DNA of 64,000 nt from Candidatus Moraniibacteriota bacterium (GTDB taxonomy: Bacteria > Patescibacteriota > Minisyncoccia > Moranbacterales > UBA2206). A program made the translations under genes and the position numbers. Below are positions 1 to 14,710 of this stretch, in pieces. Location: the NCBI GenBank assembly GCA_049303795.1, contig JBAQNM010000004.1, positions 8,623-72,622 on the forward strand, in the 5' to 3' direction. The notes beneath the pieces are model-generated. The model had not been told where the DNA came from. It worked only from the letters and a program-made list of their open reading frames with translations, and ran no database searches. Position 1 is the stretch's first letter, and the number at the start of each line of letters is the position of its first letter.

Positions 1-375
1 AATTTCCTTGTTCAAAAGAAAACTTTCCATCACCGGCAGATCCCACCAAAGCTGATTTTTTTGTCCCATCAATAGCGCAAACTGTTTTTTATATTCATTT
101 TTCTTTTCCCACGGATCAAATCCCATCACACTTATTTCTCCACTGGTTGACTTGATTATCCCGGAAAGCATTTTTAGCGTCGTAGTTTTTCCTGCGCCAT
201 TTGGTCCAAGAAATCCCACGAACTCCCCTTCTTCAATTTCAAAACTAACATCCTGAACCGCCTCTATTTTTATAATATTAGGTTTGAATAAACTTTTTAT
301 CCCCGCCCAAATTCCCGGATCTTTCTTACTGGAAAAATAGGTCTTATTTAAATTTTTAATTGAGATAATTGACAT
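1..375 (-). CDS. ABC transporter ATP-binding protein (partial; continues beyond the window start)
   Basis: Reverse-strand translation from the ATG at 375 gives MSIISIKNLNKTYFSSKKDPGIWAGIK...GEFVGFLGPNGAGKTTTLKMLSGI with a Walker A motif (GPNGAGKTT). It lies downstream of two permease genes. Confidence 0.85.
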   Translation of the reverse strand, partial: MSIISIKNLNKTYFSSKKDPGIWAGIKSLFKPNIIKIEAVQDVSFEIEEGEFVGFLGPNGAGKTTTLKMLSGIIKSTSGEISVMGFDPWEKKNEYKKQFALLMGQKNQLWWDLPVMESFLLNKEI

Positions 376-396
376 TTTATTTAAAAAAATTATTAA

Positions 397-1209
397 TTAA
401 CTGCTGGCACTAGAATATTTACTTAGTCCAAACTTCCAAACTTTTCTGGCAAGCCAAAAAAATATTATTGCTACTAAAAAAGATTCACTGACTAGTTGCC
501 ATTGGAAACCACGCGCCAAAATTTTTGCCGGGACAGTGGCAATAAATGCCAAGGGAAAAATAAAAGAAAAAATAAAATGCATGATTTTTCCATTGAAAAT
601 ATCTGTGGGATATTGAGATACTCGCACAACCGTATCTGCTACATGAAATCCGCCTGATTCAATCGTCCAAAATTTTATAGAAGTTAACATAACTGAAATG
701 CTGTAAATTATAATAAAAGCATTAAAAACTAAAATTAAATACCAAAAAATATTCAAAATAAATCCCCAGCCAAAATTTCCCAAATGACTGAGCGCAAAAA
801 TAATCACGCCAAGTCCTGTTACAATTCTCACCGCATCTTCCAAATCTCCACGATAAACTGAAACTAGAAACTGGCAATCCATTGGTTTTATAATCAAAGA
901 ATCCAGTGTTCCCATTTTAATGTGCTGACCAAGAATATGGATGAAAGCACAGCTGACCCACATCATACCATCCAAAAGCAAAACTGTTCCCACCACCAGA
1001 AGAGCTTCGTAATAATTCCAACCATGAATACTCTGAACCCAGCCAAAAATTATTTTAATAAAAAATAAATTGAAAAATAGTTGCAAGAAAACAGCAAAAG
1101 TCATCAGGGAAAAACCAAAGCGATATGCCACCCGCTCAACGAAGTTTATCTTTTTAAAAAGAATAAAAATCTTAAAATATTTTTTAATCTTAAGCGCCTT
1201 GTCCTTCAT
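397..1209 (-). CDS. ABC-2 type transporter permease
   Basis: 270-aa polytopic hydrophobic protein immediately upstream of the ABC ATPase. It overlaps the upstream permease gene, consistent with an operon. Confidence 0.6.
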   Translation of the reverse strand: MKDKALKIKKYFKIFILFKKINFVERVAYRFGFSLMTFAVFLQLFFNLFFIKIIFGWVQSIHGWNYYEALLVVGTVLLLDGMMWVSCAFIHILGQHIKMGTLDSLIIKPMDCQFLVSVYRGDLEDAVRIVTGLGVIIFALSHLGNFGWGFILNIFWYLILVFNAFIIIYSISVMLTSIKFWTIESGGFHVADTVVRVSQYPTDIFNGKIMHFIFSFIFPLAFIATVPAKILARGFQWQLVSESFLVAIIFFWLARKVWKFGLSKYSSASS

Positions 1210-1981
1210 ATTTTTCCAAACCTTTTTTAAAAATAAAATTAGCCAAAAATCCTAGTATCAAAATCCAAATTAAGACCGGAATAAAAATCCGTAAATTCAA
1301 CTCCATCTTTCCACTCCAAATGGCAATGGGAAACCAAGTGATAAATCTAAATGGCAGAAAATTATTAATACTAGAAATTATTTTTGGCAAAAGATCCAGT
1401 GGCATAATATTCCCCGCCAGAAAAAACATAATCATCCGCACAAGAAAATTAAATCCCCTGACGTCACCCAGCCAAAAAGTGGCCAAACCGACTATATAGA
1501 AAAATAAAACAAAAATTATAAAGGCTAAAAAAATTGAAAGAATAAAAAAACCAAGCTTAACAAAATCCAAACTGCCATCAAAAAAATTAGTGCTGAATAA
1601 AATTATAGGCACCATAACAATAAAAGAAATAAGCAGATTCAAAAAAGACTTTCCCGCTACAATCCAAAACGTTGACCAAAAATAATTTATTGGCTTCAGA
1701 ATGAAGTTGGTAATATTTCCAAGTCTAATCTCATCACCAATTCTCCAAGCTACATCCACGCCTTGAATTACAAAAGAAATAATAGCCGAAAGAATATAAT
1801 AACTAATAAGCCCATTTAGTGAATATCCCCCAACCTGATTCCCTTCGGCGTAGATAGCTTTCCAAAGAAAAATAAAAACAAACAGCGAAATTGCCTGTGA
1901 AACAATAAGCATGAAAATATGCGAGCGATACATCAACGCTTCAGAAATAGAATTTTTGAAAAATAATAGGTATTTATACAT
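1190..1981 (-). CDS. ABC-2 type transporter permease
   Basis: 263-aa protein with multiple predicted TM helices. First gene of a permease-permease-ATPase operon. Confidence 0.6.
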   Translation of the reverse strand: MYKYLLFFKNSISEALMYRSHIFMLIVSQAISLFVFIFLWKAIYAEGNQVGGYSLNGLISYYILSAIISFVIQGVDVAWRIGDEIRLGNITNFILKPINYFWSTFWIVAGKSFLNLLISFIVMVPIILFSTNFFDGSLDFVKLGFFILSIFLAFIIFVLFFYIVGLATFWLGDVRGFNFLVRMIMFFLAGNIMPLDLLPKIISSINNFLPFRFITWFPIAIWSGKMELNLRIFIPVLIWILILGFLANFIFKKGLEKYEGQGA

Positions 1982-2069
1982 ATAGAAATTTTAGCTTTTC
2001 AGGTTAACATTCAATTTTTCCAATTTTAACATTTTTAGAGCTAGATGGCGAATTCATTCATAAAAAAGC

Positions 2070-2098
2070 TTGACATTATCTGAGTTATGTTGTAGTAT
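2070..2098 (+). promoter_or_regulatory. sigma70-like promoter (TTGACA-17 nt-TAGTAT)
   Basis: TTGACA at 2070-2075, a 17-nt spacer, then TAGTAT at 2093-2098. It lies upstream of the epimerase gene in the divergent intergenic region. Confidence 0.5.
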
Positions 2099-2216
2099 CT
2101 CCTGTTAATTAAAAAAGTTATAACTAAAATGAATTAGGCGGAATTATTATAAGCTATGCCTTATTTTAAGCATTTTATAGCAATAATCAATATTAAATAA
2201 ATCATATAATACCATT

Positions 2217-3230
2217 ATGAATTCTAGCATAAAAAACATTTTAGTAACTGGCAGTTCCGGCATGATTGGAACAGCGCTCGTGCAAGCACTTCAAAAAAAG
2301 GGCTATGGTGTCTATGGTTTTGATATAAAAGAACCAGCTATTTATAGTGATTTCAAATATAAAGTTGTTGACCTTACTAAACCTGTAGAGGAATCTTTTG
2401 GTGTAAATATAGATTTGGTCATTCATCTTGCTGCCCACGCCAGAGTATATGAACTTGTTATTGATCCAGCAAAAGCACTTGAAAATGCGACTATGGTTCA
2501 TAATATCTTTGAATGGTGCCGAAAAAATGAAGTTAAAAGATTTTTATTTGCTTCATCAAGAGAAACATATGGAGATCAAACAGAATTGCCCGTCAAGGAA
2601 AGTGTTGCCAATCAACGTTTTTCAAAAAGCAACTACACGGCTGGAAAGATTTTTGGCGAAGCTTATTGCTATTCATATAGCCATTGTTACAATATGCAAT
2701 GCAAAATAATGCGTCTTTCTAATGTTTATGGAAAATATGATTTCTCTGATAGATTTATTCCAAAAATAATTAACCAATTTATCAACGATCAAGATGTCAC
2801 TATATATGGAGAAAACAAAACCCTAGATTTCACCTATCTTGATGATTGTGTTAATGGAATTTGCCTACTTATAAATAAATATGATGTATCTGCTTTTTTA
2901 GAATACAATATTGCTTCAGGCACACAATCCAGCTTAATTGATGTCGCTCAAAAAATAAAAGACCTACTCGATTCAAAAGCAGAAATTAAAGTTGGTGAAA
3001 ATCTCACTGGTGAGGTTTTTAATTATCAAGCGGATATTTCTCGCATGAAAAACATAGGCTATGCACCAAAAATATCAGTTGAAGATGGAATAGAAAAATC
3101 GCTTGGCTATTATAGTGAATATTTCGCACCAAAAAAGAGCCTTGCCTCTCTTGCTATTGAACAATTAAAAATAGAATCGGAAAAATTAGGAACAGAATTT
3201 TCAGAATCGCTTTGTCCGGCTTTGGATTAA
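2217..3230 (+). CDS. NAD-dependent epimerase/dehydratase (SDR family, UDP-sugar epimerase-like)
   Basis: N-terminal Rossmann motif GSSGMIGTALV. Catalytic YxxxK (YTAGK). 337 aa. Confidence 0.85.
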   Translation: MNSSIKNILVTGSSGMIGTALVQALQKKGYGVYGFDIKEPAIYSDFKYKVVDLTKPVEESFGVNIDLVIHLAAHARVYELVIDPAKALENATMVHNIFEWCRKNEVKRFLFASSRETYGDQTELPVKESVANQRFSKSNYTAGKIFGEAYCYSYSHCYNMQCKIMRLSNVYGKYDFSDRFIPKIINQFINDQDVTIYGENKTLDFTYLDDCVNGICLLINKYDVSAFLEYNIASGTQSSLIDVAQKIKDLLDSKAEIKVGENLTGEVFNYQADISRMKNIGYAPKISVEDGIEKSLGYYSEYFAPKKSLASLAIEQLKIESEKLGTEFSESLCPALD

Positions 3231-3260
3231 TTTTTGAAAATGATAGTATTTTAGAAACAA

Positions 3261-3292
3261 AAAAACAGCGGTCAGATGACTGTTGTTTTTTT
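3261..3292 (+). terminator. rho-independent terminator
   Basis: Stem cagcggtca / tgactgttg (with G-U wobbles), loop gat, followed by a T7 run. Sits just after the epimerase stop. Confidence 0.6.
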
Positions 3293-3340
3293 GTTTAATT
3301 ATTAATCCCTTTCTTAATGTGGAAAAATGTGAAAAAAAAC

Positions 3341-3370
3341 TTGACAAAATACAGATAATCGTATTATTAT
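3341..3370 (+). promoter_or_regulatory. candidate promoter (TTGACA ... TATTAT)
   Basis: TTGACA at 3341-3346 and an AT-rich -10 (TATTAT/ATTATT) 15-18 nt downstream. Spacer length is ambiguous. Confidence 0.3.
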
Positions 3371-3521
3371 TTAATGTTATTTTATCGGCCATTTTATGGA
3401 TCGATTTATAACGGTTCATTTACAAATTATAGAATAAAAAGACTCAGAAAGGAGGGTTCTAGCTCAAAATTTTAGAGTGTCTGAAAACACAATTTTAACT
3501 TAATGAATCAGGAGGAAAAAG

Positions 3522-4253
3522 ATGGACAAAGACGATCCACGCTTTAAAAAATGGGAGACTATTTTCAAATGGGGCCTTGGATTTGGCGGTGCAATTGCCA
3601 TTTCCCAGGTAGCACTGTTGGCCATTCAAGGAATTCTTGGTCTGGTTGTAGCTATTGGTCTTGGAGAGACCATTATACAACTTGCGCCTGTTTTTTCCTT
3701 AAAATTGGCCAATTGGAAAATCAAACTTCTGACCGCTGAGGTTGAAGCCAATCCGATTGAGACATTAATCGGGTTGAAAATTGAAAAGGACCGTGAGTAT
3801 GGGCAAGCCGGTCAAGATATTGTCGCCTTTGAAACGGAAGTAAGAAACTTCCATGATGAGGTTGCAACGTTTGAGGGGCAGTTTCCCGAAGAAGCAGCTG
3901 CTTATAGAGACATCTACAAAAAAATGAGTAGTGGACTCGATGACATGAAAAAGCGCCAAGCTGAAGCTGCAACGAAACTTGATGCATTAAGCAAGACTAT
4001 CGAAAAAGCAAAGGCCATATACAAAATGTCCTTAGCGGCTGAACGAGTGACGCAACTTTCCAAGCCGGCAGAAGCAATCGTGTTTGCCGACATCAAGGAA
4101 AGGATTGCTTTTGACACAGTAAGGACGCAGTTAAATCATTCATTCGCGTCGCTAAACAATGCCGTTAACCTTCGACGAGAGATTCGCCCAAAAGCTTTTC
4201 CTCTCGGAGGAGAAAAAACCGCAGGACTTATCGAATCAAAGGAGGCCGTATGA
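3522..4253 (+). CDS. Hypothetical membrane-anchored coiled-coil protein
   Basis: AGGAGG Shine-Dalgarno 7 nt upstream. N-terminal hydrophobic segments (GLGFGGAIAISQVALLAIQGILGLVVAIGLG) followed by a charged, alanine-rich helical region. Noticeably higher GC than neighbouring genes. Confidence 0.6.
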   Translation: MDKDDPRFKKWETIFKWGLGFGGAIAISQVALLAIQGILGLVVAIGLGETIIQLAPVFSLKLANWKIKLLTAEVEANPIETLIGLKIEKDREYGQAGQDIVAFETEVRNFHDEVATFEGQFPEEAAAYRDIYKKMSSGLDDMKKRQAEAATKLDALSKTIEKAKAIYKMSLAAERVTQLSKPAEAIVFADIKERIAFDTVRTQLNHSFASLNNAVNLRREIRPKAFPLGGEKTAGLIESKEAV

Positions 4254-4399
4254 AATTCAGAATTATAGCATCAATTTTACTCATTGCTGCAACCTTAACC
4301 GGCTACTGGCTTTTTTACAGCAGTGATCAGACAACTGACAAGCCGGAAACGCAACAAATCGAAGAAACCACCCACAAATCACCTTTCATAACGAACTAA
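4250..4399 (+). CDS. Small membrane protein (49 aa), translationally coupled
   Basis: The ATG overlaps the upstream TGA stop (ATGA). MKFRIIASILLIAATLTGYWLFYSSDQTTDKPETQQIEETTHKSPFITN has one TM helix. Absent from the ORF track because it is under 60 aa. Confidence 0.4.
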   Translation: MKFRIIASILLIAATLTGYWLFYSSDQTTDKPETQQIEETTHKSPFITN

Positions 4400-4414
4400 A
4401 AAAAGGAGCAACTC

Positions 4415-5497
4415 ATGAAAAAAATGAATCGTTTGTTTTGGGCTATCGCATGTGTTTTTGGAATATTTTTTTCAAGCCCGGTATTTTCTGAGGAAGGCAA
4501 GGCTCCGGCCTCCTGCCCCAAAGAAAAAATCGCTGTGGCAACAGGAATTTCAACCGGAACATATTCAAAAATGTTTCAATCAGTCGCCAATCTGCCGGAA
4601 CTGAGCGACATCGTTTGTGAATACACGCAAACAAGTGGCGGCTATGACAACGTCCTGCTCTTGATGGATCGAAAGGTTGATGCAGGCATCGTTCAGGCCG
4701 ATGTGTTCGACTTCCTGAACAAAACCAATCCGGATATCAGGAAGAACTTAAGAAGCCTTTTTGCCATGCATGGAAGCTCCATGCACATCTTTGTTCTGAA
4801 AAATGGAACGGAGTGTAAAACGGTGACTCCTGGAAAAATTCGAATGCTGGATAAAACCGTAACATCGATTGTAAAAATCGAAAACCTTCGAGATCTCAAG
4901 GGTCTCAAAGTCGCCGCGCTCAGCAGTGCAGTTGTTACGGGAACTGAGGTGAGCGATCTGTTAAAGCTCAATCTCGACATTGTCGAGACAACAAAAGATG
5001 GTGGCTTTGAAAAGCTGAAAAATGGCGAGGTATATGCATTCCTGGCCATGGGCGGCAAGCCGATCGATTGGATTGATAAGGTTGATGCGAACATTTTCAC
5101 ATTAGCCAATGTCGATTCGACAGACATTCAAGCCCTGGGGTCTCCCTTCTACAATACCAAATTGCAGTATAAAAAATTCGGCGCTATCGGCACCAACGCC
5201 ATAACGGCGAGAAACGACTTTGTCGTCTGGGATTATAAAGGGAAAAAATCCGCCCTGCTTTCAAAAATTTATGATACTGTTTTTGAAAATCTGGCGGACG
5301 TCAAAGAGGACATGAGTTCTCATCCATGCTGGCAGGAAATAACCGAGGAAAATATTACCGACGTTTTCTGGCAGAAATATGAGCCGCCGGCCACCAATAA
5401 GTCAAAGCGGGAAAAGGTTGAATCAGAATCGACTTCTGAGCAACCATCCTCAGAAATGGTTATCACTCCTGCTGTAAAAAAACACCGCGGAAAATAA
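4415..5497 (+). CDS. Secreted periplasmic solute-binding protein, TAXI/PhnD-like fold (orphan; no permease nearby)
   Basis: AAGGAG Shine-Dalgarno 7 nt upstream. Signal peptide MKKMNRLFWAIACVFGIFFSSPVFSEEG. The motif KIAVATGISTGTYSKMF...TSGGYDNVLLLMDRKVDAGIVQADV resembles TAXI-family TRAP solute receptors. Confidence 0.5.
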   Translation: MKKMNRLFWAIACVFGIFFSSPVFSEEGKAPASCPKEKIAVATGISTGTYSKMFQSVANLPELSDIVCEYTQTSGGYDNVLLLMDRKVDAGIVQADVFDFLNKTNPDIRKNLRSLFAMHGSSMHIFVLKNGTECKTVTPGKIRMLDKTVTSIVKIENLRDLKGLKVAALSSAVVTGTEVSDLLKLNLDIVETTKDGGFEKLKNGEVYAFLAMGGKPIDWIDKVDANIFTLANVDSTDIQALGSPFYNTKLQYKKFGAIGTNAITARNDFVVWDYKGKKSALLSKIYDTVFENLADVKEDMSSHPCWQEITEENITDVFWQKYEPPATNKSKREKVESESTSEQPSSEMVITPAVKKHRGK

Positions 5498-5526
5498 TCT
5501 CATTTTCCGAAAAAAGTTAAACCAGT

Positions 5527-5563
5527 CCATCACTATGCGAAGCGTAGTGGTGGGCTTTTTTTA
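5527..5563 (+). terminator. rho-independent terminator
   Basis: Stem ccatcacta / tagtggtgg, loop tgcgaagcg, then gcttttttt. Follows the stop of the solute-binding protein gene. Confidence 0.55.
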
Positions 5564-5603
5564 TAAAAAAGCCATTTCAGAGAAATGACTTAACTATGGG
5601 ACA

Positions 5604-5636
5604 ATCGGTCTGCTCGATAAAAAATGTAGTGTGCGG
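5604..5636 (+). repeat. 33-bp perfect direct repeat, copy 1 (atcggtctgctcgataaaaaatgtagtgtgcgg)
   Basis: Identical 33-mer recurs at 8075-8107. Confidence 0.9.
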
Positions 5637-5873
5637 CGGATTCTGAAAGAAGCTCGAACTTTCTTTGAAAAGCAGGCTTGAATTTCTCCGCTCCGCTTCC
5701 GCCCGCAAACTTTGAAGAAGTTTGCGTTCCAAAACAGAAAAATTTTCTCTACTTTTCGGATTTTGTATGCGCGCCGATTTTTTCAAAAAAATGAAAAGGA
5801 AATTTTTCTGGTTTTGGAGTTCGCATAGCGAACGGCGGAAAACGGAACCTCAATAAATAAGTACTGATTATAT

Positions 5874-6629
5874 TTATTTTACTGGCTTCCCTATATCCCA
5901 TAACGCCTTATAAAAAATTCGCATGGTATCGGCATATGATTTGCTTTCAATAACAAAGCTGTAATTTTCTTCTAATGGAGCAAATGAAGCAACGACATCA
6001 TCATAAATTAAAAGTGAATTATTTAGTTTCATGCCTAGTGGCAATTCTCGTGCTTCGCGATTTGTAGGTTTCAGTGTTTCCGTCGCAAAATAGCGATGCG
6101 TGCTTTTTTGTCCATGATTTCTCAGAACTTTACTTTTGATGCCTCTCCTTCCTGCTTTTTCAATATACTGCTCAATAAACTGTTTGCCTAAAATATCCGT
6201 GGCAGCTTTATGAGCAATTGTCCAAAAGACTTCTTTTCCCCTAGCTTCCAATGCATTTAGCCAGATTCTTTTCATGCCCTCCTTACCGCGATAATATTTG
6301 AAATTAGTGGAAAACTTTTCTGCTTCAAATATTTTTTTAAGCTGTGGTAATGATTCATTTAATGCATCCTGGTTTCTTTTTTGTATTTCCCCTAAAACAT
6401 CCGGGCTCTCAGCGATATAAATTATTTTTTTACCTTTTTGCGTCTGACTTACTAACCCCAACTGAATTAACTTCTCTAAAAAATTATACACTGTCGTTCT
6501 TTTCACCTTGGCTTTGCTGGAAATTTCTTGCACCGACCCACTGCCTAATTCCAAACAAGCTAAATAAATTTTAGCTTCCTTGTCAGAAAAACCCAAATTT
6601 TTTACAAAAACGACAGCACTCTGATCCAT
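5874..6629 (-). CDS. TrmB-family HTH transcriptional regulator
   Basis: N-terminal winged-helix LGFSDKEAKIYLACLELGSGSVQEISSKAKVKRTTVYNFLEKLIQLGLV. A paralog lies at 42636-43439. Confidence 0.7.
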   Translation of the reverse strand: MDQSAVVFVKNLGFSDKEAKIYLACLELGSGSVQEISSKAKVKRTTVYNFLEKLIQLGLVSQTQKGKKIIYIAESPDVLGEIQKRNQDALNESLPQLKKIFEAEKFSTNFKYYRGKEGMKRIWLNALEARGKEVFWTIAHKAATDILGKQFIEQYIEKAGRRGIKSKVLRNHGQKSTHRYFATETLKPTNREARELPLGMKLNNSLLIYDDVVASFAPLEENYSFVIESKSYADTMRIFYKALWDIGKPVK

Positions 6630-6762
6630 AAAATAATCTATTTAATTTTGTCTATATTATAGACAAATAGTATTGAATTTGTCAAGTTTCCTGCTATACT
6701 AAACAACCATTGCAACATCGTTGTTAGTGGCAAGTTCGTTAAAATCTAAATGGAGGTTATTT

Positions 6763-7695
6763 ATGAATGATAAAAATAAAAGATTTATTTACACTCGAGG
6801 ATTTCTTCTCCCAGATGATCAGAGCACAATTATGAGCGAATCATCACTTTCTCCAGATTTTATTGCTAAATATCGTGAGGGAAAATTTAATCAATCTACT
6901 AATGATATTCCCTTTAATGTCGGCGATATTTTTAACGAAACAAAAAAGATTCTCAAAGAAATTCATGGCAAACCGCTTACCGTAGATCCGATTCCTGCAG
7001 TTTTCACTGGCGATAATTTTATTATGGCAAGAAAGCTGTTTGATCTTCGTCCTGCGTTTTCACCTGGTGCTGAAATACTAAAAGAGATTTGCGAAAATAA
7101 ATGGGCAGAAAATGGCAAAAATCGGTGGCGAACATACTGCGAACACTTGGAAGAAGATGAAAAAGAAGAAATGATTCATGATAATTTTGTCAGAAAAGTC
7201 ATTTTTTCAAATTGGCCACGCGGGTGGTATCTTTATGATGCCACTGATTTAAGAAAAGAGCGTGCTATTCTTTCTGACAAAGAACATCCTACTCACGACA
7301 AACTCGCACCTCTCATCGCAGAATTAAGAAGAACAAAAGAGGTTGGCGGATACGACAACACTCCGCCAAGCACGCGCAAATCTCTTTTTATAAACGCTGA
7401 ATGGCCAAAAGTCTTAGCCGGACAAGAGGCAATTTTGCCGTTCCTAAAAACTGGAGTGGGATCCATCCTTTCCTATTCCGCATTCTATATGATAGGGCAT
7501 ATGTACGACAAAAATTTGTTACATACATATGCAACTACTTACTTTGCTGAAATTACACGAGGACTTTTTGGTATCTGGCGACGCTCATCAATCGCTCCGT
7601 GTAAGTATCATCGCATGGAGATTAGGCAATCGGCGACAGATTCTCTTCGTCCAGTAGGAATATGTCGCACATTTTGGGGTTGGAGGACGTTGTAA
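6763..7695 (+). CDS. Hypothetical protein (310 aa, no recognisable domain)
   Basis: Start chosen at ATG 6763 with a GGAGG Shine-Dalgarno 6 nt upstream; the track's TTG at 6721 is in frame. No motifs recognised. Confidence 0.6.
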   Translation: MNDKNKRFIYTRGFLLPDDQSTIMSESSLSPDFIAKYREGKFNQSTNDIPFNVGDIFNETKKILKEIHGKPLTVDPIPAVFTGDNFIMARKLFDLRPAFSPGAEILKEICENKWAENGKNRWRTYCEHLEEDEKEEMIHDNFVRKVIFSNWPRGWYLYDATDLRKERAILSDKEHPTHDKLAPLIAELRRTKEVGGYDNTPPSTRKSLFINAEWPKVLAGQEAILPFLKTGVGSILSYSAFYMIGHMYDKNLLHTYATTYFAEITRGLFGIWRRSSIAPCKYHRMEIRQSATDSLRPVGICRTFWGWRTL

Positions 7696-7700
7696 ACAAA

Positions 7701-7736
7701 GAGGCTCAGTAGAAAATCACTGAGCCTTTATTATTT
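7701..7736. terminator. hairpin terminator (bidirectional) between convergent genes
   Basis: Stem aggctcagt / actgagcct, loop agaaaatc, with T/A-rich flanks. Confidence 0.6.
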
Positions 7737-7760
7737 AACTTTTTTATTAATAAACATTAT

Positions 7761-7958
7761 TCACTTTGATAGCTCATAAGCCGAAATTCCTAAGGCTTTT
7801 GCAATTTTTTCAATATTTAAAAGCGTGGGATTTCTTTTGTCATTTTCAATCCCGCTAATGTAAGCTCTATGCACATCTAATTTTCGGGAAATATCTCCTT
7901 GCGATATTCCTTTTTGAGTTCTGATTCTCTTTAAATTGTTGCTCGGTTTAGCAGAAAT
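7761..7958 (-). CDS. XRE-family (Cro/C1-type) HTH regulator; start codon unresolved
   Basis: Reverse translation gives ...NNLKRIRTQKGISQGDISRKLDVHRAYISGIENDKRNPTLLNIEKIAKALGISAYELSK*. No in-frame ATG/GTG/TTG precedes the HTH. The ATG at 7998 is in another frame, separated by a T5 run at 7961-7965. Confidence 0.55.
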   Translation of the reverse strand: MSAKPSNNLKRIRTQKGISQGDISRKLDVHRAYISGIENDKRNPTLLNIEKIAKALGISAYELSK

Positions 7959-8074
7959 TGTTTTTGCTTCTATTGGCGGTTTTAGTGTTTTTGATCATTT
8001 AGTTCGGGTGTCCTATTCTCCTTCGGATTTTTAGACTTTGCGATTTTTTGCAAAATGGCCTAAAATTGAGGCTC

Positions 8075-8107
8075 ATCGGTCTGCTCGATAAAAAATGTAG
8101 TGTGCGG
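8075..8107 (+). repeat. 33-bp perfect direct repeat, copy 2, overlapping the last 3 nt of tRNA-Asp
   Basis: Identical to 5604-5636. It abuts and overlaps the 3' end of tRNA-Asp at 8105-8107. Confidence 0.9.
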
Positions 8108-8178
8108 GGACGGCCGGACTCGAACCGGTGACCTACTGCGTGACAGGCAGTCGCTCTAACCAACTGAGCTACGCCCCC
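8105..8178 (-). tRNA. tRNA-Asp (GTC)
   Basis: Cloverleaf GGGGGCG..GCCTGTCACGC..GGTTCGAGTCC..CGTCCCCG. Anticodon loop CTGTCAC. No encoded CCA. Confidence 0.85.
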
Positions 8179-8207
8179 GTGTGAATATTTTATTTTAAAT
8201 CAATTCG

Positions 8208-8282
8208 TAGCAGGGGTGGGGATCGAACCCACGAACCTCAACGTTATGAGTGTTGCGCTCTAACCAACTGAGCTACCCTGCC
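8208..8282 (-). tRNA. tRNA-Met (CAT), elongator-type (or tRNA-Ile2)
   Basis: GGCAGGGTAGCTCAGTTGGTTAGAGC..CTCATAA..GGGTTCGATCCCCAC..CCCTGCTA. Closely resembles an elongator tRNA-Met. G1-U72 pair. Confidence 0.7.
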
Positions 8283-8329
8283 AACATAACAAACGACTCA
8301 CTGCGTTTTATGCTTATTATAAGTTTTTG

Positions 8330-8402
8330 TTGCGGGGGCAGGACTCGAACCTGCAACCTTGTGGTTATGAGCCACACGAGCTGCCAATTGCTCCACCCCG
8401 CT
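8330..8402 (-). tRNA. tRNA-fMet (CAT), initiator-like
   Basis: AGCGGGGTGGAGCAATTGGCAGCTCGTGTGGCTCATAACCACA..GGTTCGAGTCC..CCCCGCAA is near-identical in layout to E. coli initiator tRNA. It has A11:U24 and A73, and an unpaired A1xA72. Confidence 0.7.
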
Positions 8403-8422
8403 ATTTTTAATGACTATTTAGC

Positions 8423-8451
8423 ATTCTAGATGAGAAAAACACATTCGTCAA
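8423..8451 (-). promoter_or_regulatory. sigma70-like promoter for the tRNA cluster (TTGACG-17-TAGAAT on minus strand)
   Basis: Reverse complement reads TTGACGaatgtgtttttctcatcTAGAAT, about 20 nt upstream of tRNA-fMet. Confidence 0.45.
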
Positions 8452-8468
8452 TAAACTATCCTAGTTTG

Positions 8469-9005
8469 CTAATCTATCACCTGAAAATACTGCAAAAATT
8501 TTTCAAAATCGGCAATTGTCTTTTGCGCTTCTTCTTTGGTTAATATGAAGCTTTCATCATGAATTATGCGATTACGCACCTCATGTGCCCGCCTCAAATC
8601 TTCAATATTTTCAATTTGCCCAGGAGTAATCCCGTCCAAGCGCTCGCCAAAATTTTCTCCCTTATAGCCCATTCTTGTAATCAAATCATCGATAATATTA
8701 TCACCTTCAATAATTGCCACTTTATATTCAGACTGATTATTGCTTTTGAGTCGCGCCTTCACTTTATTCCATTTTGCTATTAACTTTCCTTTTTTAGTGA
8801 TCATCTCAGGAGGAACATTTATCCCAAGCACTGTATCACGCAAATCACCACCAAAAGGACGTTGCTTAATTAATAAAGCTAAATCAAAAAGTAGCACAAG
8901 AACATAGATAATCAAAAAATATTTTATCAATGCAAAAGTCAGCGAAGAAAGAAATAATTTCTTAACGATAGCTAGCATTGAAAATGCATCTCCTATTCCA
9001 TTCAT
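8469..9005 (-). CDS. Hypothetical membrane protein
   Basis: 178-aa ORF with an N-terminal hydrophobic helix, at the tail of the ligA-gatCA operon. Confidence 0.5.
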   Translation of the reverse strand: MNGIGDAFSMLAIVKKLFLSSLTFALIKYFLIIYVLVLLFDLALLIKQRPFGGDLRDTVLGINVPPEMITKKGKLIAKWNKVKARLKSNNQSEYKVAIIEGDNIIDDLITRMGYKGENFGERLDGITPGQIENIEDLRRAHEVRNRIIHDESFILTKEEAQKTIADFEKFLQYFQVID

Positions 9006-12937: not shown

Positions 12938-14710
12938 TTAACAACAATAGCGACTATCCCCACCACTACAACCAGAGGTGCAACTTCCACAAACAGAGCC
13001 AGGACATAACATCAATCCACAAGTTGTAGGACTATAGCAATTACCACAAGTCGGTGTACACTTACCAAAAGTAGAGCAACTATTTTGAATACAACAAGTT
13101 TCAGATGCATTCGGATGATAACCAGCACTACAAATCACCTTGCAACTTTTTGTTAAGGTATAATTGCAATCCGTCGCTCCTTTAGTACATGTTGTTCCGC
13201 TTACATTCCAACCACTCATTCCTGTTGTAAGGGCTCCGCAATATTTTATTGAATCAGTTATTATAGGAGAAGGACAGGGACGAGAACAACAACGAGATTT
13301 TGTTAAGACATTGCCTGGGGTTGGAATCCTTGGTGGTAATGTTGGAGGATAGAGAGGATTTGGTATTTCACCACCATTCATATCAACATCAATATCATGA
13401 GTTAAAGTCCAAACAGAACTGTTAATACCTTGGTCTTTATCAACATCGTTAGGAGGGCAACCTGTGCAATAACCAACTGTACGACGTGGCTTTGTGCAAC
13501 TAGCTCCAGACAAACAATTTACAGCTTTACCAACACCACAAAAACCGACTCCTCCATTGACACCATCACCTGAGTTATTTCCTGAAGGATATTCTTCAAC
13601 CTTACTAATAACAGAGCCTCTATAGTTATCACCATCAAGATATCCGTGATAATTACCTGTGCATGTTTGCAAACAACAAGTCTTTGCAGCATTAGATACC
13701 CATTCTGGACCCATACAAGACAAACAATGAGAACCATTGCAACAATTATGTGTCCCTCCATATGCGCCAGCCCCGTCAACGCTTCCAAAAATACAGCCAA
13801 GTCCAGACAAGGAGCTTCCTCCAGTACAGTCCGCACTGCCCTCTATTTGAATTGCATCATTAGGATCATAATGATAGAGTGAATCCAATTTAAAGGGGGT
13901 GCTGTTTCTTGCTTTGATAGCAAAAAAGTATTTTTCATTATACTGGCCACCAGTTGTTGCAGTTCCAGGCAATTCAGGATCACCACTTTCAATCAAACGA
14001 GTTTGATTTCTAGTGAAAAAAGAATTGACTGGTGCAGTTCTTTGCAATACTCTTATCCAACCATATTCTCCCGCATTAGCTCCATTTTCCAAAGATCCAG
14101 TGTCATTGTTTCCTGATGACATTCTAACTTCATAATTTACCACTCCGCCGGGAACAGTAGCCTGATTATCATTCACCCTAACAAGCATCTCGCATCTATT
14201 CCACGAGCAACTACCACCACCACCGCATTTCGTAACTGTCAAGCTACCATTAGTGAGCATTCCATCGACTCTATCTGAAACCGGGGCATAGACTGATCGA
14301 GTAACACCTTGATCCGTCACATCAGACTGAGAATTGAAAATGGTTGTTACTTTGTCTGTGCCAGCTGGAGCGGTTGTCCCATCACCTTTAAAACATTGGA
14401 CTCCCGAGCAAAAGCTAGTGGCAAGAGTATTTTCAGGAATTTGATTGTCTGCATAACCGGCATCAGTCCCACTGTCCAATTCATTCAATTTACTCAAAAA
14501 ACCTTCCACAGTTTGATCTGACTGTTGGTATGTAGTATAGCCTTTTTTGGAATCAGTAGTGAGTTGAATACCTTGTAAGGTTCGACTTATAATTGCCAGG
14601 GCAATCGCCGAAATCATTAAAAAAACAATCATAACACCAATAAGCAGTGAGCCCTTCCCTCTAATAAATAGTCCTTTTCTGGATTTTTTTTTGTTTATCT
14701 TTTTATTCAT
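12938..14710 (-). CDS. Large cysteine-rich surface protein with a PilX_N-like N-terminal anchor (candidate pilus-tip/adhesin protein)
   Basis: N-terminus KGLFIRGKGSLLIGVMIVFLMISAIALAI resembles PilX/pseudopilin anchors. 590 aa with about 40 Cys concentrated in the C-terminal half. Last gene of the pil operon. Confidence 0.65.
   Translation of the reverse strand: MNKKINKKKSRKGLFIRGKGSLLIGVMIVFLMISAIALAIISRTLQGIQLTTDSKKGYTTYQQSDQTVEGFLSKLNELDSGTDAGYADNQIPENTLATSFCSGVQCFKGDGTTAPAGTDKVTTIFNSQSDVTDQGVTRSVYAPVSDRVDGMLTNGSLTVTKCGGGGSCSWNRCEMLVRVNDNQATVPGGVVNYEVRMSSGNNDTGSLENGANAGEYGWIRVLQRTAPVNSFFTRNQTRLIESGDPELPGTATTGGQYNEKYFFAIKARNSTPFKLDSLYHYDPNDAIQIEGSADCTGGSSLSGLGCIFGSVDGAGAYGGTHNCCNGSHCLSCMGPEWVSNAAKTCCLQTCTGNYHGYLDGDNYRGSVISKVEEYPSGNNSGDGVNGGVGFCGVGKAVNCLSGASCTKPRRTVGYCTGCPPNDVDKDQGINSSVWTLTHDIDVDMNGGEIPNPLYPPTLPPRIPTPGNVLTKSRCCSRPCPSPIITDSIKYCGALTTGMSGWNVSGTTCTKGATDCNYTLTKSCKVICSAGYHPNASETCCIQNSCSTFGKCTPTCGNCYSPTTCGLMLCPGSVCGSCTSGCSGGDSRYCC

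Follow-up and report, generated by a model that had tools for sequence, protein, structure and literature searches.

We analyzed a 310-codon open reading frame (ORF) in a stretch of 64,000 nucleotides from a Candidatus Moraniibacteriota bacterium (contig JBAQNM010000004.1; this whole stretch is referred to here as the window). The ORF lies in an islet bounded by direct repeats next to a tRNA-Asp gene, between a divergent TrmB-like regulator gene and a convergent XRE gene. Table 1 shows these and the other features of the locus. The initial annotation had described the ORF with its GGAGG ribosome-binding site and hairpin terminator, the two flanking regulators, and the repeat-bounded islet, all of which were confirmed. 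It had also stated that the protein has no recognizable motif. This was correct for Pfam, PHROGs, NCBIfam, PADLOC, and the sequences of the Protein Data Bank (PDB), none of which gave a match, but phmmer and profile searches detected remote homologs, which connect the protein to the targets of diversity-generating retroelements (DGRs) in bacteria of the candidate phyla radiation (CPR).

The ORF starts with an ATG at 6763 and ends with a stop codon at 7693 to 7695. A consensus scan predicted two promoters within the 133-bp intergenic region that separates it from the TrmB-like gene. On the minus strand, the putative promoter of the regulator (TTGACA-18-TATAAT) agrees with the sigma-70 consensus at 12 of 12 positions, and on the plus strand, the one assigned to the ORF (TTGAAT-16-TGnTATACT) has an extended -10 element. 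A perfect 21-nt palindrome, TTTGTCTATA-T-TATAGACAAA, overlaps the -10 box of the regulator promoter and is a candidate operator; a full consensus promoter with a palindrome over its -10 box (6647 to 6700) makes an unusually clean putative autoregulatory layout. At the other end of the ORF, the 11-pair hairpin with its T-rich tail gives a terminator score on the plus strand as well as on the minus strand. Together, the ribosome-binding site, predicted promoters, palindrome, and terminator look like those of a maintained, regulated gene and not like debris.

The amino acid composition had been described as rich in Trp, Arg, His, and Asp, unlike that of the native proteins. Compared with six neighboring native proteins, the enrichment was clear for Trp (2.6 versus 1.2%), Arg (7.1 versus 3.5%), and His (2.6 versus 1.1%), while Asp was barely enriched (5.8 versus 4.8%). 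As a sign of foreign DNA, however, this composition did not hold up, since the richness in Trp and Arg is common to the whole family of homologs (3.0 and 7.4%, respectively), and the GC content at third codon positions (GC3) of the ORF (0.312) was the same as that of gatA (0.299).

Table 1. Position of the ORF, its expression signals, and the surrounding islet in the window (AF2, AlphaFold2; pLDDT, predicted local distance difference test)
Feature	Coordinates	Strand	Evidence
Left copy of exact 33-bp direct repeat, tRNA distal	5604..5636	.	
Noncoding left arm, with hairpins downstream of the TrmB-like gene	5637..5873	.	Fold
TrmB-like winged-helix regulator, 251 aa, divergent from the 310-aa ORF	5874..6629	-	Pfam TrmB, 3e-15
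21-nt perfect palindrome, candidate operator, overlapping the -10 box of the regulator promoter	6647..6667	.	
Predicted back-to-back promoters	6656..6700	.	Consensus scan only
GGAGG ribosome-binding site, 6 nt from the ATG of the 310-aa ORF	6752..6756	+	
310-aa ORF, divergent homolog of a CPR DGR variable-protein family	6763..7695	+	Homology searches
Codons 42 to 257, part aligning to the family profile (positions 44 to 239 of 287; 92 bits)	6886..7533	+	Profile, AF2
Codons 258 to 310, W/R/C/H-rich tail in place of the variable repeat (VR) of the family	7534..7692	+	Profile, AF2 pLDDT of <50
Hairpin terminator, bidirectional, separating the 310-aa ORF from the XRE gene	7700..7729	.	
XRE/HTH_3 ORF, convergent downstream, without canonical start, probably 5' truncated	7761..7973	-	
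Right arm, with 90% identity to that of an element in locus L030 that carries other cargo	7968..8074	.	
Right copy of the 33-bp repeat, covering the final 3 nt of tRNA-Asp as delimited by Rfam	8075..8107	.	
tRNA-Asp(GTC), insertion-site landmark	8105..8178	-	Rfam; ARAGORN gives 8104 to 8178, hence a 4-nt overlap

Remote homologs and their retroelements

A word-indexed search of 5.8 billion clusters matched the 310-aa protein only to itself. An exhaustive phmmer search of 1.84 billion representatives, on the other hand, provided nine remote homologs (E values of 1e-15 to 5e-4, ca. 30% identity), the best of which was P0002 (1e-15). By these similarities, the apparent ORFan is no true orphan. 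A profile of the nine homologs retrieved 131 proteins of ca. 280 to 310 aa, all of them annotated as hypothetical and without a Pfam domain, so that the window protein now belongs to a defined family of ca. 130 clusters. The named sources were all CPR/Patescibacteria (Saccharibacteria, Parcubacteria, Portnoybacteria, Yanofskybacteria, and Minisyncoccia). The conserved motifs include VDPLP..FT, NLRPVFLPGE, RGWYLADFT, and NDPLAPII..LR..GKIGKYD.TP.GSRF, as well as EW, RLERxIEFNAIGNLYDxNRGKFNMWEWF, L.GG.R..GGLA.V, and, at the C terminus, AGRPLVSF. The nine first homologs were also negative in Pfam, two family members scanned against PADLOC and NCBIfam gave no match, and profiles of the whole family and of its C-terminal half likewise matched nothing in PDB.

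Judging by the sequences around and within its genes, this family consists of the target (variable) proteins of CPR DGRs. Among the 17 loci with enough downstream sequence to be evaluated, 8 have a cassette after the gene (a template repeat [TR] and/or bAvd plus a reverse transcriptase [RT]), and the other 9 have none. Thus, bAvd and then an RVT_1 RT follow the genes for P0046, P0009, and P0108 (loci L006, L007, and L032), and an RVT_1 gene lies downstream of the gene for P0048 (locus L033). The 3' end of the gene, the VR, recurs as the TR ca. 430 nt downstream, and where the two copies differ, the TR has an adenine in 8 of 8 cases in L006, 17 of 17 in L007, and 16 of 16 in L025, with lower proportions in L011 (16 of 18), L017 (17 of 19), and L013 (16 of 27). 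Mismatches on the adenines of the downstream copy are the signature of a DGR, in this case with the order VR, TR, Avd, and RT. The P0028 cluster is diversification caught in the act; its seven sequences differ at only 16 columns, all of them within the last 41 residues.

The six TRs mentioned above, from different CPR lineages, were combined into an nhmmer profile, which matched VR-like DNA in all 19 family loci that hold the 3' end of the gene (E values of 1e-7 to 1e-34), including the members without a cassette (1e-7 to 1e-26). By eye, the six TRs are visibly well conserved in a DNA alignment, whereas in the broader family sample the bodies of the target proteins average only ca. 54% identity, which implies either strong constraint on the scaffold codons of TR and VR or an exchange of cassettes. 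In canonical members, the last ca. 40 codons are the VR, which the RT rewrites from the nearby TR with errors at adenines, so that the constant body ends in a hypervariable tip of ligand-binding type. Two other observations concern the loci themselves. The cassette-less members in L009 and L034 occupy the same housekeeping neighborhood (RecJ, family gene, and RNase H) in two assemblies, and they are stable chromosomal genes and no island cargo. The contig of L006 carries two DGRs ca. 6 kb apart (1 to 1490 and 6001 to 8608), the second one consisting of an RT (1 to 934, minus strand), bAvd (933 to 1283), and a TR-like match (1338 to 1454); the adjacent 461-aa protein matches CLIPPER faintly.

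The DGRs of CPR bacteria were reportedly first surveyed by Paul et al. in 2017, and the family described here is almost certainly already among the catalogued but unnamed CPR DGR targets. DGRs are more common in CPR than in most other bacterial groups, and the targets of their "clade 2" typically have no recognizable transmembrane or conserved domain; the function of these small domain-less targets is unknown (PMC8144416). The VRs of CPR DGRs have been left as unknown classes with no fold assigned, and remote targets are known for DGRs (PMC5758913). The window protein resembles the CPR DGR variable proteins of both studies in that it has ca. 300 aa, is homologous to them over residues 42 to 257, belongs to a CPR-restricted family, and has no signal peptide, transmembrane segment, or known domain.

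Departure of the window protein from the family

The family profile that matches the protein with 92 bits was built without it. The last 48 positions of this profile, which correspond to the VR, found no counterpart in the window protein, and the tail could not be aligned at either the protein or the DNA level. Searches downstream and in the other frames of the ORF gave no frame-shifted VR. The six-TR profile (nhmmer --max) had no match in the window, its best hit being at an unrelated place with an E value of 3.6. An adenine-tolerant scan for a cognate TR on both strands of the window gave only A-rich noise, while the same scan recovered the repeats of its positive controls, L006 (8/8) and L007 (17/17). 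Two CPR DGR RTs and one Avd compared with the window by tblastn gave nothing (best E value, 2.9). Unlike the CPR DGR variable proteins, therefore, the window copy has no VR, no TR, no homing-site-like DNA (of the CGTCCTCTGGTGAGTTT family type), and no Avd or RT nearby.

The second difference is the absence of population variation. The 90% cluster of the window protein consists of one sequence present in six contigs from several samples, all identical, and no variant was found in a collection of 15 billion proteins. Two sister metagenome-assembled genomes (MAGs; loci L002 and L005) show zero substitutions across 1489 to 8066, a segment that includes the gene. Given this invariance, together with the lack of VR, TR, homing-site-like DNA, Avd, and RT in the 64 kb, the protein is apparently no longer diversified.

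We consider it probable that the window protein descends from a DGR target, evolves fast, has lost both VR and retroelement, and was kept as a regulated protein of fixed sequence on a small integrated element. The constant body (residues 42 to 257) is kept and the VR has been replaced or lost, and the gene would still be expressed, from a promoter that lies back to back with that of the TrmB-like regulator and shares with it an intergenic region with a palindromic candidate operator. It would likely act as a binding protein whose specificity is frozen, or else its function may have changed.

Several points weigh against this reading. The search covered 64 kb of the genome, and other parts of it may hold a DGR whose TR is of a different type. 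The loss of the VR as a derived state is argued from distribution only, that is, from one VR-less sequence versus ca. 130 VR-bearing clusters. The expression and regulation of the ORF are predictions from consensus motifs. Finally, the window protein has changed at many residues that at least 85% of the family conserve, including E236, R237, N246, and, farther on, W-E-W, and also at the R and G of the NRG motif, and with so many conserved residues altered, a loss of function is a live alternative.

The first of these points would be accounted for if the gene were a live target diversified in trans by a retroelement outside the window, with a TR unlike the six sampled. A cassette is missing within several kilobases of the gene in about half of the family, remotely acting DGRs have been described (PMC5758913), and the tail contains many residues of the kind typically found at diversified codons. 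Nevertheless, the cassette-less members keep VR-like DNA, of which the window gene has none. Neither the 15 billion proteins, in spite of the six contigs, nor the sister MAGs provided a single substitution, and we consider this explanation very unlikely.

Conversely, the protein might never have been variable and might represent the scaffold in a pre-DGR form that later gave rise to the DGR targets. In favor of this, it shares the body alone and has its own C-terminal tail and terminator. However, it is a single sequence in one species compared with VR-bearing clusters spread across five CPR groups, and the weak residual matches in its tail (Y, R, and R-P) line up with scaffold positions of the VR. 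An ancestral state thus seems extremely improbable.

The altered residues bear on another possibility, that the gene is a decaying relic, a former DGR target without function that drifts to a pseudogene within a degraded element. The body of the window protein is on average only 28.7% identical to the family (maximum, 37.8%), about half of the level within the family (mean, 53.8%), and the protein is twice as divergent as any other member. Besides the loss of the near-invariant residues named above, the C-terminal 57 aa have a pLDDT of <50, the neighboring XRE gene has no start codon, and the islet has no recombinase. On the other hand, 23 of the 40 strongly conserved body residues were kept, including W155, D159, R205, E213, and W214. 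The ORF runs uninterrupted for 933 nt in DNA of 35% GC, none of the six contigs shows a frameshift or stop, and the strong GGAGG at ideal spacing, the plausible extended -10 promoter, and the clean terminator are all in place. On balance, we regard simple decay as unlikely.

Structure prediction gave a similar division of the protein. With a 123-sequence alignment, AF2 was confident over most of residues 50 to 250, while the pLDDT stayed below 50 at residues 254 to 310; from the single sequence, the pLDDT was 35. The AF2 model had no match in either PDB or BFVD.

The islet at tRNA-Asp and its regulators

The 33-bp repeat that bounds the islet had 0 matches in shuffled sequence. Besides the 310-aa ORF, the segment between its two copies (5637 to 8074) contains only the TrmB-like gene and the XRE gene, and there is no integrase or recombinase among these ORFs. 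The left arm folds far better than shuffled sequences (z = -4.25 for 5600 to 5875, minus strand), and neither Rfam nor ARAGORN identified an RNA family or a tRNA in it. One of its hairpins, GCAAACTT-loop-AAGTTTGC at ca. 5701 to 5721, has a 5-nt loop that is inverted in the 94% variant described below. A decayed tRNA beside the left repeat (5637 to 5706) was considered and dropped, as it had no ARAGORN or Rfam support even at E values of ≤10. A foreign base composition was rejected as well, with a GC content of 0.367 in the islet versus 0.353 ± 0.024 in the window and a native-like GC3 in the 310-aa ORF.

Comparison with relatives showed that the occupancy of this site varies. The two sister MAGs are identical to the window from 1489 to 8066 and differ only at 8067 to 8074, but after the right repeat, where the window has tRNA-Asp, they continue into a 94% variant of the left arm (5603 to 5821), which indicates a second element in tandem, between the islet and the tRNA. 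A circular excised form was rejected as the source of this junction because the identity of the joined arm reaches only 94%. A 90% relative (L030, a JGI contig) shares tRNA-Met, tRNA-Asp, the repeat, and, with 90% identity, an arm of 105 bp, but it has a different cargo, namely, a zinc-ribbon protein, a DUF4365/Mrr-like protein, and a large serine recombinase. The trailer CACACTACATTTTTTATCGAGCAGACCGA(T) comes after tRNA-Asp in both the window (8075 to 8104) and L030 (2741 to 2774), and the same 32 nt stand directly after tRNA-Ser(tga) in a different genus with coding DNA ca. 66% identical (L029, 11361 to 11392). The repeat found behind another tRNA in another genus is thus element borne, and therefore, from its sequence and positions, it would be a conserved element end or attachment sequence in the tRNA trailers of these CPR bacteria.

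The homology with the L030 arm starts at ca. 7968, in a hairpin loop. The hairpin is intact in L030 and only half of it is retained in the window, and this is exactly where the start of the XRE ORF is lost. In the XRE region (7761 to 7994, minus strand), the HTH_3 (helix-turn-helix) domain is complete, but there is no ATG, GTG, or TTG upstream of it, the annotators having used ATA, and the first canonical start leaves just 37 aa. The first three XRE codons derive from the half hairpin. The 5' end of the XRE gene was apparently cut by a rearrangement at ca. 7968. As for the other regulator, the Pfam TrmB match (56 bits versus a cutoff of 25.6) covers an N-terminal winged helix-turn-helix, the only recognizable part. 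In this, the protein resembles the TrmB family, but the sugar-binding C-terminal domain was not detected, and the NCBIfam TrmB equivalogs scored 17 to 23 bits versus cutoffs of 500 to 650. Judging from these domain scores, it is probably not a true sugar-sensing TrmB.

The most fitting view of the islet, 2.4 kb long, is that of a remnant or passenger of this element family that has been rearranged and has no recombinase. The 310-aa gene and its regulator, with the truncated XRE gene, would accordingly form a leftover of integrative elements that insert at the 3' ends of tRNA genes in these bacteria. Like tRNA-site integrative elements in general, the islet has exact repeats around it, one of them abutting the tRNA 3' end, and arms common to other elements at the same site, with the tandem element in the sister MAGs and the serine-recombinase element in the relative as further points in common. 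It differs from them in the missing integrase or recombinase, in its native base composition, and in a repeat that lies almost wholly in the tRNA trailer and not in the tRNA. To our knowledge, 33 bp of identity is not normally left behind by large serine recombinases.

These results also bear on the proposal, made in the initial annotation, that the ORF is a regulated cargo gene of a small mobile element and encodes a toxin, effector, or enzyme. The first half of this proposal survives in part; the site is repeat bounded, tRNA adjacent, and differently occupied in close relatives, and the gene has its own predicted promoter beside a dedicated regulator gene with a perfect palindrome as candidate operator. 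Not in its favor are the absence of a recombinase, the truncated XRE gene, and the native base composition. The second half fared worse. No enzyme, toxin, or defense family was matched, there was no catalytic signal, and no small ORF resembling an antitoxin partner accompanies the gene. Its homologs are DGR variable proteins, usually located among housekeeping genes and off islands. It had been suggested to check whether homologs co-occur with TrmB or XRE regulators or with tRNA-adjacent islands. Only one incidental XRE gene was found in 23 loci, and none of 21 loci scanned had a tRNA within 2 kb of the gene (the nearest was at ca. 2.3 kb). The location of the window copy in a tRNA-adjacent islet with HTH regulators is thus another difference from the CPR DGR variable proteins, and a toxin, effector, or enzyme carried as regulated cargo is highly improbable.

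Significance and neighboring genes

The novelty lies in recognizing a derivative of a DGR target that has no VR, sits in an islet, and is linked to a regulator, and in describing an element family at tRNA trailers, documented as active in a Moraniibacteriota population. The result is incremental and mostly clarifying and does not overturn current understanding. Still, a relative that kept the body, lost the tip, and gained a regulator amounts to a natural experiment, in which the function of the body may be separable from diversification, and a member of fixed sequence is easier to express and study. A bolder scenario, which we find quite doubtful, would be that a binding scaffold evolved under a DGR escaped its retroelement and was frozen with a remodeled tip, and that a miniature tRNA-site element, still shuffled in the present population, then took it up along with a dedicated winged-helix regulator. 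If so, binders derived from hypermutation would spread horizontally in CPR bacteria as regulated modules of fixed specificity, and the constant body, confidently modeled by AF2 and unmatched in PDB, would represent a new fold whose function is its own and independent of the variable tip.

As for the fold, the string N-M-W-E-W ... G-G-x-R ... G-R-P-L-V of the canonical relatives shows a putative resemblance to the G-N-V-W-E-W ... R-G-G ... G-F-R motifs of C-type lectins of the formylglycine-generating enzyme type. The window protein lacks exactly those motifs, and no sequence or fold match to the C-type-lectin DGR proteins was found. One common trait is that the C-terminal VR of the canonical relatives ends a few codons before the stop, as in the variable proteins of this fold with solved structures, that is, Mtd of Bordetella phage BPP-1, TvpA, the archaeal AvpA, and Thermus TaqVP (PMC2408619, PMC5006420, and PMC6328139).

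Two other regions of the window deserve mention. Immediately to the left of the left repeat (3522 to 5497, plus strand), two genes have a GC content of 0.445 and a GC3 of 0.41 to 0.49, compared with a mean GC content of 0.353 in the window. They encode a 243-aa protein (PHROG 27316; E value, 2e-37) and a 360-aa TAXI/NMT1-like solute-binding protein (PHROG 6856) and are probably a separate, younger acquisition. At the second region (12938 to 14710, minus strand, for the gene named last), several pilin-like (N_methyl) genes and a gene for a prepilin peptidase are directly preceded by a gene for a 590-aa cysteine-rich protein, which has an N-terminal transmembrane segment.

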